Positions 213 through 3,807 of a stretch of DNA of 30,231 bases are shown here, one piece after another. A program made the position numbers and the translations under genes. Under the pieces are notes generated by a model, which was not told where the DNA came from, did no database searches, and saw only the letters and a list, made by a program, of their open reading frames with translations. How positions within the stretch are numbered: position 1 is the first letter of the stretch; every line of letters begins with the position of its first letter. The DNA is from a virus (Duplodnaviria > Heunggongvirae > Uroviricota > Caudoviricetes), in the IMG/VR virus record IMGVR_UViG_2695420421_000005; one strand, written 5' to 3'.

Positions 213-2120
213 ATGAGCAAAGTAAAAATCGGTGAATTAATAAACTCACTTGTTAGCGATGTTGAGTCAATAGATAACTCTGACCGTCCTCAAGGGGAAA
301 AAACAAAAAAAATAAAGGCTGTTGCATTAAAATTTAAAAATGCATTATTTAATGACAAGCGAAAGTTTAGGGGGAAAGGATTAGAAAAAAGAATTACAGC
401 CAACACATTCAATGCCTATATGAGCAGGGCCAGAAAACGGTTTGATGATAAACTTCATCATAGCTTTGAAAAAAATATACATCGCCTATCTGAAAAGTAT
501 CCTTTATATAATGAGGAGCTATTGTCATGGCTTTCTCTACCTGCTGCCGATATTCGCCAGAGAATGTCAACTTTACAGGCAAAATTAAAATTAATTCTCC
601 CTTTATCAGAAGATTTATCTAATATCAGAATTGGTGATAACAAAAATCATAATAAGTTATTAAAATTATCAAATAAATATAAAGAGTGGCAATTCGCAAT
701 TTCTGATTTAACTAGCGATAACTGGAAAGATAAGCGCGATTATTTATATAAATTACTACAGCAAGGATCTGCCTTGCTTGAGGAGTTGAATCAGCTAAAA
801 GTTAACCATGAGATTCTCTATCATCTTCAACTAAGCCCTGCCGAACGCGCATCTATCCAGCAACGATGGGCGGACGTTCTGCACAATAAGAAACGTAACG
901 TGGTGGTCATTGATTACCCTAAATATATGCAAGCTATTTACGATATTATAAATAGCCCTGCTACATTAAATAATCTAAACACTCGTTCAGGTATGGCTCC
1001 TTTGGCATTTGCACTTGCTGCATTGTCAGGAAGACGAATGATTGAGATTATGTATCAAGGTACATTTACTGTTTCTGGTAAGTATACCGTTGATTTTTTA
1101 GGCCAAGCTAAAAAAAGAACTTCTGATGATATAACCAGAAAAATATATACATTATGCGAAGCAAAAACATTTGTTTATTTAATAAATGTACTTCGCTCAT
1201 GCCCAGCAGCATCTGATTTTGATGATGTCGTTAAAGGTTATGGAGATAACGACACACGCTCTGAAAACGGACGTATTAATGCCATATTAGCAAAGGCTTT
1301 TAACCCGTGGGTTAAATCATTTTTCAAAGATGACCGCCGTGTTTATAAAGATAGTCGTGCTATTTATGCCCGTATTGCGTATGAAATGTTTTTCCGCGTA
1401 GATCCTCGTTGGAAAAACGTAGATGAGGATGTTTTCTTTATGGAAATTTTAGGCCATGACGATGAAAACACTCAATTACACTATAAGCAATTCAAGCTGG
1501 CCAACTTCTCAAAGACATGGAGGCCAAATACTGGAAACGAAAATACCAGGCTGGAAGCATTGCAGCAGCTTGATGACGAAATGCCTGGATTCGCCAGAGG
1601 AGATGCCGGGGTTCGTCTGCATAACACAGTTAAGCAGCTGGTAGAGCAGGACCCCTCTATAAAAATCACGAACAGCACTCTAAGAGCATTCAAATTTAGC
1701 CCAACAATGATTAGCCGATACCTGGAATTTGCTGCTGATGCTCTGGGGCAATTTGTTGGCGAAAATGGACAATGGCAGCTGAAAATAGATACTCCAGAAA
1801 TCGTTATGCCTGACGAAGAAGAGCTGGAAGCAATACCTGAACAGACGGATGAATTATCAGATGATGACGATCTGGATGACGACGAAATTGAGATAGAGGA
1901 AGAGGAAGAGGAAGAGGAAGAGGAAGAGAGCGTAGAAGAACAGCAACCGCCCGCGCCTTCTTCACCTGTATCTAAGCCGGTATTTAAGCCTGTGAGAAAT
2001 ATTGGTGATGGTTCATACGTTGTTGAGTTTCATTATAATGGCCAGAATTATGCTTGGTCCGGCAGTGCAAACAGCCCTATGTCAGCAATGCAGTTAGCAT
2101 GGCTGACATATTTCGGATAA
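213..2120 (+). CDS. telN: Protelomerase (telomere resolvase) TelN, 635 aa
   Basis: Translation closely resembles my recollection of N15 TelN (N-terminus MSKVKIGELIN..., internal ...NTRSGMAPLAFALAA..SGRRMIEIM... and ...RSENGRINAILAKAFNPWVKSFF... blocks, acidic C-terminal tail); RBS AGGAGAGG 5 nt upstream of ATG; adjacent telomere palindrome. Confidence 0.95.
   Translation: MSKVKIGELINSLVSDVESIDNSDRPQGEKTKKIKAVALKFKNALFNDKRKFRGKGLEKRITANTFNAYMSRARKRFDDKLHHSFEKNIHRLSEKYPLYNEELLSWLSLPAADIRQRMSTLQAKLKLILPLSEDLSNIRIGDNKNHNKLLKLSNKYKEWQFAISDLTSDNWKDKRDYLYKLLQQGSALLEELNQLKVNHEILYHLQLSPAERASIQQRWADVLHNKKRNVVVIDYPKYMQAIYDIINSPATLNNLNTRSGMAPLAFALAALSGRRMIEIMYQGTFTVSGKYTVDFLGQAKKRTSDDITRKIYTLCEAKTFVYLINVLRSCPAASDFDDVVKGYGDNDTRSENGRINAILAKAFNPWVKSFFKDDRRVYKDSRAIYARIAYEMFFRVDPRWKNVDEDVFFMEILGHDDENTQLHYKQFKLANFSKTWRPNTGNENTRLEALQQLDDEMPGFARGDAGVRLHNTVKQLVEQDPSIKITNSTLRAFKFSPTMISRYLEFAADALGQFVGENGQWQLKIDTPEIVMPDEEELEAIPEQTDELSDDDDLDDDEIEIEEEEEEEEEEESVEEQQPPAPSSPVSKPVFKPVRNIGDGSYVVEFHYNGQNYAWSGSANSPMSAMQLAWLTYFG
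1896..1925 (+). repeat. (GAGGAA)5 in-frame hexanucleotide tract encoding a poly-Glu run in the TelN acidic tail
   Basis: Five perfect tandem GAGGAA units read directly. Confidence 0.9.
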
Positions 2121-2132
2121 AGCATACAGTAA

Positions 2133-2164
2133 AGGCACCGAATTATCGGTGCCTTGTTGTGTGG
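2133..2164. terminator. Intrinsic terminator shared by telN (+) and the convergent minus-strand small-ORF operon
   Basis: 9-bp stem AGGCACCGA/TCGGTGCCT with ATTA loop (2133-2154) followed by TGTTGTGTGG; located 13 nt after the telN stop and just after the minus-strand BRO-N fragment stop. Confidence 0.6.
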
Positions 2165-2165
2165 C

Positions 2166-2330
2166 CTACCTCGCCTGCCCCTTTTCGTCCTCATCCAACT
2201 TTCTGATGGCCGTAGAATCAATACCCGCCGCCATACACACATCAGATGCAACAAACCACGGTTCGCCGTTAATCATCACTACACGAACCTGATGCTCTTC
2301 CTGAAAGGAAAAGACTGCTAACGCGCTCAT
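2166..2330 (-). pseudogene. BRO-N domain fragment (truncated antirepressor-like gene), 54 codons
   Basis: Minus-strand translation MSALAVFSFQEEHQVRVVMINGEPWFVASDVCMAAGIDSTAIRKLDEDEKGQAR* matches the conserved start of BRO-N/antirepressor proteins (F.F....VR...INGEPWFVA.DV......D) but stops after ~54 aa; GGAGG 4 nt upstream; ATGA overlap with upstream ORF. Confidence 0.45.
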
Positions 2331-2560
2331 TCAGCCTCCTTATCGTGCAGCAATTGCGACGAGAGCGACGCTGAATACCCCTGTGCTTCGTGTGTTAGCT
2401 CACACGCAATTTGAAGGAGTTTCCCTGCTTCTGAGAGATAAATCGACGCCTCACAACTGGAGATTGTCCGATGGGCTGATGATACGAGCGCATAGACCTG
2501 AGCCAGACGTTCATCCAACGATTCCAGCAGGCCAACAGTGTTCATTTTTACCTGATTCAT
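2327..2560 (-). CDS. Hypothetical small protein (77 aa), middle gene of a translationally coupled minus-strand operon
   Basis: ORF with GAGGTGG RBS 4 nt upstream of ATG; stop overlaps next start (ATGA); no family recognised. Confidence 0.45.
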   Translation of the reverse strand: MNQVKMNTVGLLESLDERLAQVYALVSSAHRTISSCEASIYLSEAGKLLQIACELTHEAQGYSASLSSQLLHDKEAE

Positions 2561-2721
2561 GCAGCCACCTCGCGCACCGGAATACGGGCAGACAATACCA
2601 GGACAAACCGGCTGGCGAACTGGCGACGAGCTTCCCGTTCAGATGACGCGATGGTGGAAAGATGATGGATGTGTGACTTTTTGTCTGTGCGAACGACTGC
2701 CGCAAATTTGAATTTGAACAT
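2557..2721 (-). CDS. Hypothetical small protein (54 aa; MFKFKFAAVVRTDKK...), possible small DNA-binding regulator
   Basis: Minus-strand ORF below the ORF-track size cutoff; GGAG 8 nt upstream of ATG; stop overlaps the start of the 77-aa ORF (ATGA). Confidence 0.35.
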   Translation of the reverse strand: MFKFKFAAVVRTDKKSHIHHLSTIASSEREARRQFASRFVLVLSARIPVREVAA

Positions 2722-2746
2722 GGTATGCACTCCGTTTAATTGGTCG

Positions 2747-3048
2747 TGCTACCACCAGAGTTCCTACGCTCTATATGGCGGTAGCCCAGACGGGGGTAGG
2801 AATACCGGTAAACGAAGAAACCGGCCAGCTAAAAGCTGCCCCATCTGAGCCACCATAAATTTGGTGTACGCAGATTTTACACACAAAAAAACACGCAGGC
2901 GCGTGTTGTGCGCTTCATTTACTCGGGTTCCTACGCCCGGCTACGGGATTTACCGTAGCGGAGTAACTTTACCGTCAAAACGACGCGCACGTCAATAATT
3001 TGCAAAGGCATTTTACCCCGTGACCAGTCACGGGGACAGGTGTTTTTA
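2747..3048 (+). ncRNA. Candidate structured noncoding RNA or regulatory leader (strand and ends uncertain)
   Basis: ~300 bp without a credible ORF; several GC-rich hairpins (ACACGC-AGGC-GCGTGT 2891-2906; 7-bp stem 2940-2946/2953-2959); GTTCCTACGC repeated at 2760-2769 and 2927-2936; possible -35 TTGAAC 2714-2719 and -10 TTTAAT 2735-2740 (15-bp spacer, suboptimal); ends at a hairpin plus T-run. Confidence 0.25.
3016..3048 (+). terminator. Hairpin CCCCGTGA-CCAG-TCACGGGG followed by a T-run; possible terminator or protein-binding palindrome
   Basis: 8-bp GC-rich stem 3016-3023/3028-3035 with TTTTT at 3042-3046; the palindrome core recurs inverted at 13753-13768. Confidence 0.4.
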
Positions 3049-3096
3049 TAGTTTGCTTAAACGAGTGTTCAGAAGTTGATCGTTAATCAAAGGCCA

Positions 3097-3384
3097 TTAC
3101 TGATTAAGAGATTGGAAATACCTAACTAACTTACCGGCATCATCACATTTTTCTTTATCTTCTTCCTTAACATAGCCGCGACAAAAGGCTGAATAAAATT
3201 TTGCATTTTCAGAAGCAAAAGCAGCCGTCGAAAGGAGCAGTTCTTTGCATGATTCTTTTGATGCAGCATCGGGATTATTTTTACATGCAAGCTCTGCTGA
3301 TGAGTCAATAACAGAAATGCTATCTTCCTGGGCATAAACCGCAGCAGAAAAGGCAAAACATAAAACAAAAATAAAACTCTTCAC
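3097..3384 (-). CDS. Small secreted protein (95 aa) with signal peptide and four cysteines
   Basis: N-terminus MKSFIFVLCFAFSAAVYA|QE has a typical signal peptide; AGGAG 5 nt upstream of a GTG start; no family recognised. Confidence 0.6.
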   Translation of the reverse strand: MKSFIFVLCFAFSAAVYAQEDSISVIDSSAELACKNNPDAASKESCKELLLSTAAFASENAKFYSAFCRGYVKEEDKEKCDDAGKLVRYFQSLNQ

Positions 3385-3411
3385 TTTATCTCCTGTAACA
3401 GTTATCGCAAC

Positions 3412-3807
3412 TCAATCAACTTTTTTAGCATCAGCCATACGCTTCAACCAGTAATCAACAATCGGTTGCTCATCCACAGAATGTTTACCAGGTATAACTC
3501 GCCAGCTGTCTGCCGAAAGGCTACCGTATCTATGCGGGAAAAGGCATTTCTTTAGCTCCTGCCATGTGCTAGGAAAACCGTCTGCCAAAGTGCCAATTAA
3601 CAGAAAAGGGACAAAAATCAGGGCTACAAACCATCTGGCAAGAAAGTGCTCAACAATAACCTCTTCACCGTTATAGTAATACGCATACGTATCCCATATA
3701 CGAATTTTCCTTACCCTAAAAATGGCCTTATGCTGAGAACGACTTAGCTTGATGCGAATGTATCCCTTATCCAAGAGGGATTGGTGTTTGTATGATTGAA
3801 CAGCCAT
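3412..3807 (-). CDS. Hypothetical membrane protein (131 aa from the internal ATG)
   Basis: Hydrophobic segment WFVALIFVPFLLIGTL; ATG at 3807 lies 2 nt after the upstream gene stop; the ORF-track start at 3819 is a GTG overlapping the upstream gene. Confidence 0.55.
   Translation of the reverse strand: MAVQSYKHQSLLDKGYIRIKLSRSQHKAIFRVRKIRIWDTYAYYYNGEEVIVEHFLARWFVALIFVPFLLIGTLADGFPSTWQELKKCLFPHRYGSLSADSWRVIPGKHSVDEQPIVDYWLKRMADAKKVD

Follow-up and report, generated by a model that had tools for sequence, protein, structure and literature searches.

The segment from 2713 to 3048 of the window (the whole stretch of 30,231 nucleotides analysed here) lies in a 376-nt gap that looks empty, that carries no annotation in RefSeq for near-identical plasmids either, and that is covered by a spurious CDS in some relatives. 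This raises the question of whether the segment makes a regulatory RNA, from which strand, and how this RNA relates to the neighbouring operon of small genes. The window is an N15-like linear phage-plasmid that keeps the N15 synteny (telN, then antB-antA-icd on the opposite strand, the RNA and promoter before them, and then the repA block), and the segment corresponds to the secondary-immunity (immA) leader of N15. It very probably provides the minus-strand anti-immunity operon icd-antA-antB' with its promoter and leader, and holds an RNA immunity module of the P4/N15/P1 type. The preliminary description had proposed an RNA-controlled anti-immunity locus like those of P1 c4 and N15 CA RNA, and this proposal is borne out, both by the match to the Rfam C4 family and by the ~79% identity to the N15 immA leader. 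On the other hand, the segment had also been described as divergent or antisense to the operon, and it instead lies on the strand of the operon, which has its promoter and leader here. The preliminary description further reasoned that, if the region served the minus-strand operon as nothing more than a promoter or leader, this would speak against a regulatory RNA. The first part of this statement is literally true, but it does not refute the RNA, because in the C4/CA family the regulatory RNA is produced from the leader itself.

All the functional elements of the segment are located on the minus strand, in the order palindrome, promoter, IsrK/seqA-like leader, terminator, C4/CA RNA, short hairpin, and icd ribosome-binding site (Table 1). 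Direct observation covers the elements, the strand and family to which they belong, and the three-way coevolution of their boxes. Several stem-loops had been noticed before, and they correspond to hairpins 1 and 2 of the leader, the terminator, the C4 fold, the b2 hairpin, and a 9+9 palindrome.

Table 1. Positions of the features of the leader region and of the operon that follows it.
Feature	Position	Strand	Evidence or description
Perfect palindrome CCCCGTGAC-TG-GTCACGGGG (9+9)	3016..3035	no strand	inverted-repeat search
Operon promoter (N15 Pa counterpart), sigma-70-type	2966..2995	-	consensus scan, 9/12 matches
IsrK/seqA-like leader RNA	2886..2959	-	Rfam isrK RF01394, 62.8 bits vs gathering score 50
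Box b1, upstream 10-mer copy	2927..2936	-	core GUAGGAA 2934-2928, in the loop of hairpin 2 (2939-2924)
Box a1, GUAAAUGAAG	2913..2922	-	complementary to C4 loop CUUCGUUUAC
Intrinsic terminator (N15 annotated terminator counterpart)	2885..2907	-	stem AACACGC/GCGUGUU, loop GCCU, U run
C4/CA antisense RNA	2774..2860	-	Rfam C4 RF01695, 73.6 bits vs gathering score 45
Antisense box a', CUUCGUUUAC	2808..2817	-	loop of second C4 hairpin
Antisense box b', UUCCUAC	2796..2802	-	single-stranded joint of C4 RNA
b2 hairpin AGAG-CGUAGGAA-CUCU	2757..2772	-	b2 core 2767-2761 in loop; downstream 10-mer copy 2769-2760
Conserved GGUGGUAGC	2748..2756	-	complementary to C4 closing-stem 3' strand GCUACCGCC, 2785-2777
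Target box a2, UAAACGGAG	2730..2738	-	9 bp (one G-U) with C4 loop
icd-like gene, 54 aa, first in operon	2557..2721	-	NCBIfam NF033153 (phage_ICD_like), 67 bits vs cut-off 25
antA-like gene, 77 aa, presumed anti-repressor	2327..2560	-	66% identical to N15 gp31
antB, truncated, 54 aa	2166..2330	-	Pfam Bro-N, E = 4.8e-7

The operon begins with icd, whose start is fixed by the analysis of the leader, and whose product is 94% identical to the C-terminal 54 residues of N15 gp32. The AntA protein matches phrog_10889 ('anti-repressor'), and its phiKO2 homologue is annotated as N15 AntA-like. The third gene, antB, holds only the start of a Bro-N domain and is 62% identical to residues 1-52 of the 264-residue N15 gp30. 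Hence, the full three-gene icd-antA-antB operon is absent from the window, with antB reduced to 54 residues versus 264, while icd and antA are intact.

Transcription of these genes is expected to depend on a sigma-70-type promoter with the -35 hexamer TTGACG at 2995-2990, an 18-nt spacer, and the -10 hexamer TAAAGT at 2971-2966. Of 42 distinct loci, 38 have the motif TTGAC(G/A) at a fixed distance, and a TAnnnT -10 follows it in the loci read by eye, even in those with differing flanks. The predicted transcription start lies near G2959, and the first position of the Rfam isrK model falls on this nucleotide. In the interval from the terminator to the C4 RNA, a second promoter was also considered and rejected, as the TAAAAT at 2879-2874 has no -35 hexamer, TGn extension, or conservation.

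The locus is real but ordinary: its RNA is of a known type of small regulatory RNA, the C4/CA RNA. The covariance-model search proposed in the preliminary description returned a match to Rfam C4 that is full-length (model positions 1-87 of 87) and far above the gathering score. The fold consists of a closing stem (2855-2839/2795-2779) around two hairpins, with a 3' GCCA tail, and the branched three-stem structure from 2855 to 2779 has a minimum free energy of -44.4 kcal/mol (z = -5.8). The mature RNA is predicted to be ~80 nt long, from ~2855 to ~2776. The sequence shows a tRNA-like closing stem with this GCCA tail, and release of the RNA from the leader transcript by processing, with RNase P at the 5' end, is a candidate step. 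Both the closing stem and the second hairpin are 100% paired, and three pairs of the first hairpin have changed on both sides; the sequences of alignment A2, however, were gathered by a pattern inside the C4 5' stem, so this stem cannot show variation and most of the 5' strand of the closing stem is fixed. The RNA presents two antisense boxes, a' and b', whose labels are assigned by analogy, a one-to-one match to the P1 labels not being assured.

Upstream of this RNA, the IsrK/seqA-like leader is composed of hairpin 1 (2959-2953/2946-2940), hairpin 2 (2939-2936/2927-2924), box a1, and then the terminator stem. It exhibits the features of an isrK-type RNA: a full-length model match above the gathering score, its own promoter, an intrinsic terminator at the 3' end, and covariation in hairpin 1. 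In 39 loci this hairpin is 100% paired, and five of its seven pairs have changed on both sides. The match of the leader to Rfam c4-a1b1 (RF03163) stays at 37.8 bits, under the gathering score of 46.7, as do those of the prototypes N15 (42.4 bits) and P4 (44.1 bits). The terminator was found by a consensus scan; its stem (2907-2890) is 100% paired and nearly invariant in 39 loci, and the N15 and phiKO2 records annotate its counterpart as a putative rho-independent terminator. According to fold prediction, this terminator folds alone, without any pairing partner, and the sequence offers no obvious route by which pairing at a1/b1 could reinforce it. Since the homologous leader RNA of Gifsy-1 activates its operon rather than repressing it (PMC4825925), regulation by the short leader RNA may be of either sign.

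The targets of the C4 RNA explain the 10-nt direct repeat pointed out in the preliminary description. The repeat, GTTCCTACGC, is exact at 2760-2769 and 2927-2936, with no other copy in the 30-kb window; by our own arithmetic, the chance expectation of one such repeat within 336 nt is ~0.05. It had been taken for an internal part of the regulatory RNA, but its copies are the two targets of this RNA. In the RNA sense (GCGUAGGAAC), both are boxes complementary to the UUCCUAC of C4, and it was the complementarity check proposed for the repeated 10-mer that led to this answer. The upstream copy (b1) and box a1 together form a 30-nt stretch with 77% complementarity. The downstream copy (b2) is followed by the well-conserved GGUGGUAGC of alignment A2, whose complementarity to the closing stem is read straight from the sequence and may provide an alternative fold in the unprocessed transcript, and by a2, which includes the icd Shine-Dalgarno GGAG (2733-2730), 8 nt before the ATG at 2721.

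In 39 distinct related loci, changes in the RNA boxes go together with changes in both copies of their targets. Thus, b' is paired with b1 in 94.5% of cells and with b2 in 100%, five of the seven pairs having changed on both sides in each case, and the stem of the b2 hairpin is 95.5% paired. For a', changes on both sides affect all nine pairs with a1 (74.6% of cells paired despite alignment indels) and six of the nine pairs with a2 (65.6% of cells, with alignment indels). Sliding the pairing partners by 1-3 columns as a control leaves a pairing of only 37-50%. The loop of hairpin 1, GGUAAAU (2954-2948), was also tried as a1; it complements part of the C4 loop, but it does not covary with a' in the relatives, while 2922-2913 does, and a1 was therefore assigned to the latter. 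The two-box motif GTAGGAA-N(3-30)-TAAAYGRAG occurs three times (two sense, one inverted), versus none in 100 shuffles. Moreover, in a 10 x 10 matrix of C4 RNAs and targets, the cognate duplexes generally come out as the most stable, and the -25.4 kcal/mol of the window's own upstream target is reached by one of 1000 shuffles. As a search for loci with the AntA protein returned close relatives only, the diversity needed for these comparisons came from a DNA pattern search.

In the 42 distinct loci, the b box takes six forms and the a box 17, and these are combined in 25 ways. PhiR46_1, the nearest relative, shows 94% identity to the window over the 1351-nt query (2100-3450) and has the same a box, but its b box differs in all three copies; a KpLi5-type element shares the b box and differs in the a box. 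It is conceivable, although somewhat doubtful, that the two antisense boxes together act as a combinatorial 'address', with reshuffling among prophages of the N15-like, P4-like, and other kinds. If so, the specificity of secondary immunity could switch fast and in a concerted way; and if, in addition, an IsrK-like leader titrated the repressor RNA, cross-talk or mutual induction between co-resident prophages and satellites could follow.

The function of the module can be read from the characterised N15, P4, P1, and Gifsy-1 systems, by analogy with which a processed RNA would silence the anti-repressor operon. The CI RNA of P4 is processed from a leader transcript and pairs with seqA and seqC, resulting in premature termination (PMC4825925). 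In structure, IsrK and C4 have been described as homologous to the seqA and CI RNA of P4, and comparable systems as present in P1, P7, and N15 (PMC3632133), while STnc1160, downstream of IsrK, arises by processing (PMC4825925). For N15, the title of Ravin et al. 1999, as cited in PMC4488713, names a small processed RNA as controlling the antirepressor.

By homology with these systems, transcription would begin near 2959, and the first ~75 nt would constitute the IsrK/seqA-like leader, displaying b1 in a hairpin loop and then a1, right before the intrinsic terminator. Read-through transcripts would carry the ~80-nt C4/CA RNA (2860-2774), presumably excised as in P1 and P4. Its a' (in a hairpin loop) and b' (in a single-stranded joint) would then pair with a1/b1 on nascent leaders and provoke premature termination, as reported for N15 and P4. 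The N15 RNA is reportedly described by Ravin (1999) as a repressor, and CA RNA reportedly promotes termination. The same a'/b' boxes would also pair with b2/a2 just upstream of icd, and because this duplex covers the Shine-Dalgarno, translation of icd should be blocked, as in P1. In a lysogen, the expected outcome is that the anti-repressor stays off and that the RNA limits its own synthesis.

A positive control of the Gifsy-1 IsrK type is a possible, if rather unlikely, addition to the C4 model, which it would not replace. Such a mechanism would give the short leader RNA (2959 to ~2885), as an abundant species, a trans-acting role, with either the read-through transcripts or the C4 RNA as its target. 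Since it carries a1/b1, it could pair with a'/b', freeing the downstream ribosome-binding site or titrating the repressor RNA, and would turn the anti-repressor operon on under particular conditions. The isrK match above the gathering score is consistent with this mechanism, and so are the two predicted folds of the full read-through transcript, which are nearly equal in energy: one (-104.9 kcal/mol) pairs the leader in cis with a'b', and the other (-103.6 kcal/mol) leaves the C4 fold free. They resemble structures A and B described for isrK (PMC4825925). In Gifsy-1, moreover, trans-activation has been shown, as has a coupling of translation to that of an upstream ORF (PMC4825925). However, the orf45-like ORF that would be needed is not conserved, with 30 codons in the window and a frame and length that vary among relatives. 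The N15 genetics reported by Ravin (1999) also make the RNA a repressor, and Hfq binding and trans-activation would be only candidate features for any telomere phage.

The preference for an RNA acting in trans also has to be weighed against a purely cis-acting leader or attenuator, where the hairpins and the terminator would set the basal read-through and no stable trans-acting RNA would be released. The region is indeed the leader of the operon, and its terminator folds without a partner. Nevertheless, a cis-acting element would have no need for a second set of targets, b2/a2, coevolving with the same boxes downstream of the RNA, nor for the fold common to the trans-acting P1 c4 (PMC8546580) and P4 CI RNA (PMC4825925), and the homologous Gifsy-1 region gives the stable processed STnc1160 (PMC4825925). 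This explanation is accordingly improbable.

Even less credit is due to a plus-strand small RNA that would start within the region and end at the hairpin and T run of 3016-3035, either cis-antisense to the start of the operon, like P22 sar, or divergent to it. On the plus strand, the palindrome is followed by GTGTTTTTAT, and convergent telN transcription enters the region on this strand. However, the consensus scan found no plus-strand promoter-like site within 2713-3048, although one had been suggested, and the sole site of this kind is on the minus strand; no plus-strand Rfam match appeared either, even at E = 1, and the covarying pairings and family matches all fit minus-strand RNAs only. 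The hairpin proposed to be terminal is not called as a terminator on either strand and, being upstream of the minus-strand promoter, does not form the 3' end of any RNA made by this locus. The real terminator, on the minus strand, spans 2907-2885. The comparison with P22 sar fails, as the RNA is co-directional with the operon and inside its leader, so that regulator and targets share a strand.

The palindrome itself is located 21 nt upstream of the -35 hexamer and is present in 10 of 10 telomere-phage loci (alignment A1), where its inner core is invariant and the outer stem has changed in two. Variants in relatives break outer pairs with no compensation, a further point on which it was discarded as a terminator. 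It is missing from non-telomere relatives that retain the promoter, being confined to N15-like loci. It may be an insulating hairpin or a protein-binding site.

Finally, that the stretch encodes a small protein is hardly believable, despite the invariant AUG at 2855 and public CDS records such as the N15 'cA secondary immunity repressor', a 96-residue gp32 extension of Icd, and the 'ash family protein' that PGAP puts at this place in relatives, because the frame from this AUG ends after 8, 15, 28, 30, 31, 35, 40, 42, or >49 codons, indels shift it among relatives, the variation obeys base-pairing rules and not codon positions, and there is no Pfam or NCBIfam match except Icd, starting at 2721. 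The earlier impression that no credible ORF exists here agrees with this variation in frame and length among 39 relatives, in which none is conserved.

With the minus-strand C4/CA module, the gap thus comes to hold a promoter, leader RNA, terminator, and C4/CA RNA, as well as two target sites. The locus reveals no new kind of system, but the phage-plasmid is predicted to have a secondary-immunity specificity unlike that of N15 and unlike that of its closest sequenced relative, a difference that would bear on which co-infecting telomere phages escape or trigger anti-repressor expression.

Among known systems, the closest is the CA RNA/immA locus of N15 (AF064539, 28082-28580; Ravin, Svarchevsky and Deho 1999, Mol Microbiol 34:980), with 79% nucleotide identity over ~350 nt. 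It occupies the same place and orientation between telN and the repA block, and has the same order of palindrome, promoter, leader hairpins, terminator, C4-type RNA, b2 hairpin, icd, antA, and antB, although antB is full (264 residues) in N15 and cut to 54 in the window. The three Rfam matches of the window are also obtained, with similar scores, for N15 and P4, the two prototypes studied by experiment. Box a' reads UUUCUUCUUGUA in N15 and UUUCUUCGUUUA in the window, and box b' reads UUGAGAA and UUCCUAC, respectively, and these differences are matched by changes in both target sets. As both boxes differ, cross-reaction is predicted to be poor, with cross-pairing energies of -11.7 to -12.5 kcal/mol for the upstream target and -12.0 to -14.8 for the downstream one, compared to -23 to -26 for cognate pairs.

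The CI RNA region of P4 is 77.5% identical to the window RNA over 109 nt and has the same layout, in which a b box in a hairpin loop and an a box are followed by the terminator, the RNA, and then a b box and an a box on the Shine-Dalgarno of the next ORF. However, P4 controls its replication (alpha) operon and the window the icd-ant operon, the spacer between terminator and RNA is ~108 nt in P4 versus 26 nt in the window, and the P4 boxes differ (b' UUCUCAC, a' CCUGUGAA).

The c4 RNA of P1 and P7 (immI operon, c4-icd-ant) belongs to the same Rfam family, C4 RF01695, and also lies upstream of icd and ant on the same strand, although its nucleotide similarity to the window is not detectable by blastn. 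Citron and Schuster (1990/1992) and Biere et al. (1992) reportedly found that P1 c4 RNA is processed to ~77 nt, that it has two antisense boxes with one set of targets upstream and another downstream, and that its repression works by covering the ribosome-binding site of icd. The Ant of P1 is a protein pair that is different and larger, and the RNA-controlled leader terminator is a feature of P4 and N15, not of P1.

The isrK-orf45-anrP locus of Salmonella Gifsy-1 (IsrK and STnc1160) likewise produces a terminated short RNA and a read-through mRNA with a C4-like segment upstream of the anti-repressor gene, and its long transcript has two near-isoenergetic folds, as in the window (PMC4825925). 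Its downstream genes differ from those of the window, and its short RNA is an activator that needs orf45 translation.

Two Rfam models score above their gathering cut-offs in the region 2713-3048, both on the minus strand: the C4 antisense RNA (RF01695, 2860-2774, 73.6 bits against 45) and isrK (RF01394, 2959-2886, 62.8 bits against 50). The c4-a1b1 model (RF03163, 2972-2920, minus strand) also matches, but its 37.8 bits fall short of the cut-off of 46.7. N15 and P4, the experimentally studied prototypes, give the same three matches with near-equal scores, c4-a1b1 also being sub-threshold. The isrK and c4-a1b1 matches overlap in the window (2886-2972, minus strand), in N15 and in P4; clan CL00128 holds C4 and c4-a1b1, and isrK is not listed there. 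On the same strand, the first downstream gene is Icd-like (NCBIfam NF033153, 67 bits; 94% identical to N15 Icd), the second encodes an AntA homologue (66% identical to N15 gp31), and the third covers the N-terminal 54 residues of AntB, which hold the beginning of a Bro-N domain; the homologues are annotated in phiKO2 as Icd, antirepressor AntA and auxiliary antirepressor AntB. Together, the Rfam matches and these genes identify the region as this phage's leader of immA, the locus of secondary immunity in N15.

Features of the immA leader and its surroundings, the leader elements in RNA-strand order
Feature	Position	Strand	Remark
Palindrome	3035-3016		First in RNA-strand order
Promoter	2995-2966	-	-35 TTGACG 2995-2990; -10 TAAAGT 2971-2966
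Hairpin 1	2959-2940	-	
Hairpin 2	2939-2924	-	Loop CGUAGGAA = box b1
Box a1 GUAAAUGAAG	2922-2913	-	
Terminator	2907-2885	-	Stem 2907-2890, then T run
Spacer, 24 nt		-	Between terminator and C4 RNA
C4 RNA	2860-2774	-	
Box a' CUUCGUUUAC	2817-2808	-	Loop of second C4 hairpin
Box b' UUCCUAC	2802-2796	-	Single-stranded joint of C4 RNA
Hairpin AGAG-CGUAGGAA-CUCU, box b2	2772-2757	-	
Conserved GGUGGUAGC	2756-2748	-	Right after b2 hairpin
Box a2 UAAACGGAG	2738-2730	-	Includes Shine-Dalgarno GGAG
icd ATG	2721	-	
antB, short, 54-aa ORF	2166-2330	-	Only start of Bro-N domain
Protelomerase gene	213-2120	+	
RepA-type gene, 1331 aa	8320-4325	-	
ORF, 95 aa	3097-3384	-	Directly upstream of immA promoter

The P4 CI RNA and seqA are the counterparts of C4-like RNAs and IsrK-like leaders, and P1, P7 and N15 run similar systems (PMC3632133). 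In P4, as described in PMC4825925, CI RNA is processed from the leader transcript and pairs with seqA and seqC, resulting in premature termination. Ant synthesis is repressed by the trans-acting c4 RNA in P1 (PMC8546580), and the title of Ravin et al. 1999, as quoted in PMC4488713 and PMC3632133, places the N15 antirepressor under a small processed RNA. At the present locus, the promoter, whose predicted transcription start near 2959 coincides with the start of the isrK match, would fire constitutively, most transcripts ending at 2885, while those that read through would yield an RNA of ~80 nt. On nascent leaders, this RNA is expected to bind a1/b1, a site 5 nt ahead of the terminator stem, and thereby to increase termination; it would also pair with b2/a2, covering the icd ribosome-binding site. 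The combined pairing would hold off AntA and place the RNA under negative feedback on its own synthesis. For N15, the C4-type CA RNA is reported to make the leader terminator more efficient.

Before processing, the read-through transcript can adopt two near-isoenergetic folds, one of -104.9 kcal/mol with the leader paired in cis with a'b', and one of -103.6 kcal/mol with free leader hairpins and the C4 fold, which mirrors the A and B structures described for isrK in Gifsy-1 (PMC4825925). In addition, GGUGGUAGC complements GCUACCGCC (2777-2785, minus strand), in the 3' strand of the C4 closing stem and its tail; as long as the transcript is unprocessed, the two could pair with each other instead, which may bear on processing or on how far the icd ribosome-binding site is exposed. 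By analogy with Gifsy-1, where a homologous short leader RNA activates, the short leader RNA may act as an activator or a sponge, and such a role may coexist with repression; however, the orf45-type ORF required by Gifsy-1 activation is not conserved here.

Both the sequence elements and coevolving complementarities between the C4 RNA and its targets were observed. Related loci were gathered from phage records and IMG/VR by a pattern inside the C4 5' stem, and 39 distinct loci were aligned in RNA sense. Between b' and b2, every cell holds a standard pair; up to three pair types occur at a position, and both partners have changed in five of the seven pairs. For b'-b1 the paired share is 94.5%, again with 5/7 changed on both sides. 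For a'-a1, all nine pairs have changed on both sides and 74.6% of cells are paired, the loss being due to alignment indels, and for a'-a2 the values are 6/9 and 65.6%. Offsetting the partners by 1-3 columns leaves 37-50% paired, and the observed covariation score was not reached in any of 500 shuffles. Leader hairpin 1 is likewise supported, being 100% paired with both sides altered in 5/7 pairs, and the terminator hardly varies. In an alignment-free search, an exact 7-nt complement of b' was found at fixed leader and downstream positions in 39 of 42 distinct loci. Cognate pairs of C4 core and target generally give the best duplex energies, and the upstream duplex of the window (-25.4 kcal/mol, against -13.0 ± 3.1 in shuffles) was equalled by 1 in 1000 shuffles. 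At the sequence level, these comparisons settle the strand and the partners of the interaction, and they show selective constraint. A purely cis-acting attenuator is contradicted by the coevolving downstream target set.

The preliminary description, which had proposed a hairpin-rich noncoding regulatory RNA, guessed the kind of element rightly and the finding is real, but its strand and ends were wrong. The stem-loops exist, and the repeated 10-mer GTTCCTACGC has two exact copies in the window, at 2760-2769 and 2927-2936, and no others; from the anatomy of the RNA strand, it is the b box plus flanking bases, one per target. The window holds three occurrences of the composite GTAGGAA-N(3-30)-TAAAYGRAG, which none of 100 shuffles contains; two copies are the minus-strand targets, and the plus-strand copy is the reverse complement of the C4 core. 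The absence of a conserved ORF also held: the ORF from the invariant AUG at 2855 has 30 codons in the window, and in the 39 relatives it stops after 8 to >49 codons with frame shifts, an instability that contradicts a protein-coding reading. A plus-strand promoter was not found, the sole promoter-like site in the region lying on the minus strand, and a plus-strand or cis-antisense RNA conflicts with the strand on which the family matches lie.

The supposed terminal hairpin with T run (3016-3035) lies upstream of the promoter driving the locus and is a perfect palindrome, CCCCGTGAC-TG-GTCACGGGG, not called as a terminator on either strand; the only canonical terminator in the region is that at 2907-2885. 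Palindrome and adjoining block AAGCAAACTATAAAAAC are kept in N15-like loci and absent from other C4 loci that retain the promoter. Since palindrome variants break outer pairs without compensation, they hint less at an RNA hairpin than at a putative protein-binding site.

The window is an N15-like linear phage-plasmid. Among phage records, Escherichia phage PhiR46_1 comes closest to it (94% identity across 2100-3450), while N15, phiKO2 and several Klebsiella telomere phages show 78-84% identity to the region. Copies at 99% lie on E. coli plasmids of 27-47 kb, and one IMG/VR contig is identical across the central ~255 nt. Among 5426 complete E. coli genomes, 464 have at least a partial megablast match to the 361-nt leader; most matches are chromosomal at 80-90% identity, and C4-type modules are thus common in resident prophages and satellites. 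In some IMG/VR contigs, two C4-like copies lie ~320 nt apart, and four C4-pattern loci are listed for one 44-kb contig (sequence records for these cases: L047 136-473, L054 7411-7751, L044, L046, L058 and L073); the L047 copy examined is without matching target boxes. They may represent RNA genes that are orphans or decoys, or else errors of assembly. The 95-aa ORF, with no Pfam or NCBIfam match, has an N-terminus resembling a signal peptide by eye, and its counterpart in PV340565 is labelled 'Spackle exclusion protein'. It sits in a variable slot between the repA block and immA, which in Klebsiella telomere phages holds telocin toxin and immunity genes (PMC12042878).

The practical value lies in annotation, as public records treat the element inconsistently. 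In near-identical plasmids (pAH01-1, record L084, 438-813), RefSeq has no annotation on the leader, and among the E. coli matches it puts an 'ash family protein' CDS over the C4 RNA of relatives. N15 records (L002 3341-3643, L001 2610-2900) have a 'cA' CDS, or a 96-aa gp32 fusing the RNA region to Icd. These CDS features over the RNA in N15 and relatives are spurious.

The window's a box is also found in PhiR46_1 and NAR688, and its b box in KpLi5, 48ST307 and phiKO2. The combination of the two boxes, unseen in the other named phage records compared, recurs in IMG/VR loci and, by near-identity, in several E. coli plasmids. Across the 42 distinct loci, 25 combinations of 6 b types with 17 a types occur, which suggests that modules are exchanged or that specificity changes rapidly and in concert. 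In P1 and P7, heteroimmunity arising from box changes of this kind is a classical finding, so this pattern extends a known principle; no description of it for telomere phages was found in the limited literature covered. The regulatory family is well known, and the locus is a further member: an orthologue of the N15 CA RNA locus that belongs to Rfam C4 and whose leader is of the isrK/seqA type. What sets it apart from N15 is both specificity boxes and the short antB, of 54 aa against 264 aa for N15 gp30, a form also annotated in PhiR46_1 and plasmid pAH01-1, and therefore a feature of the lineage rather than a sequencing error.
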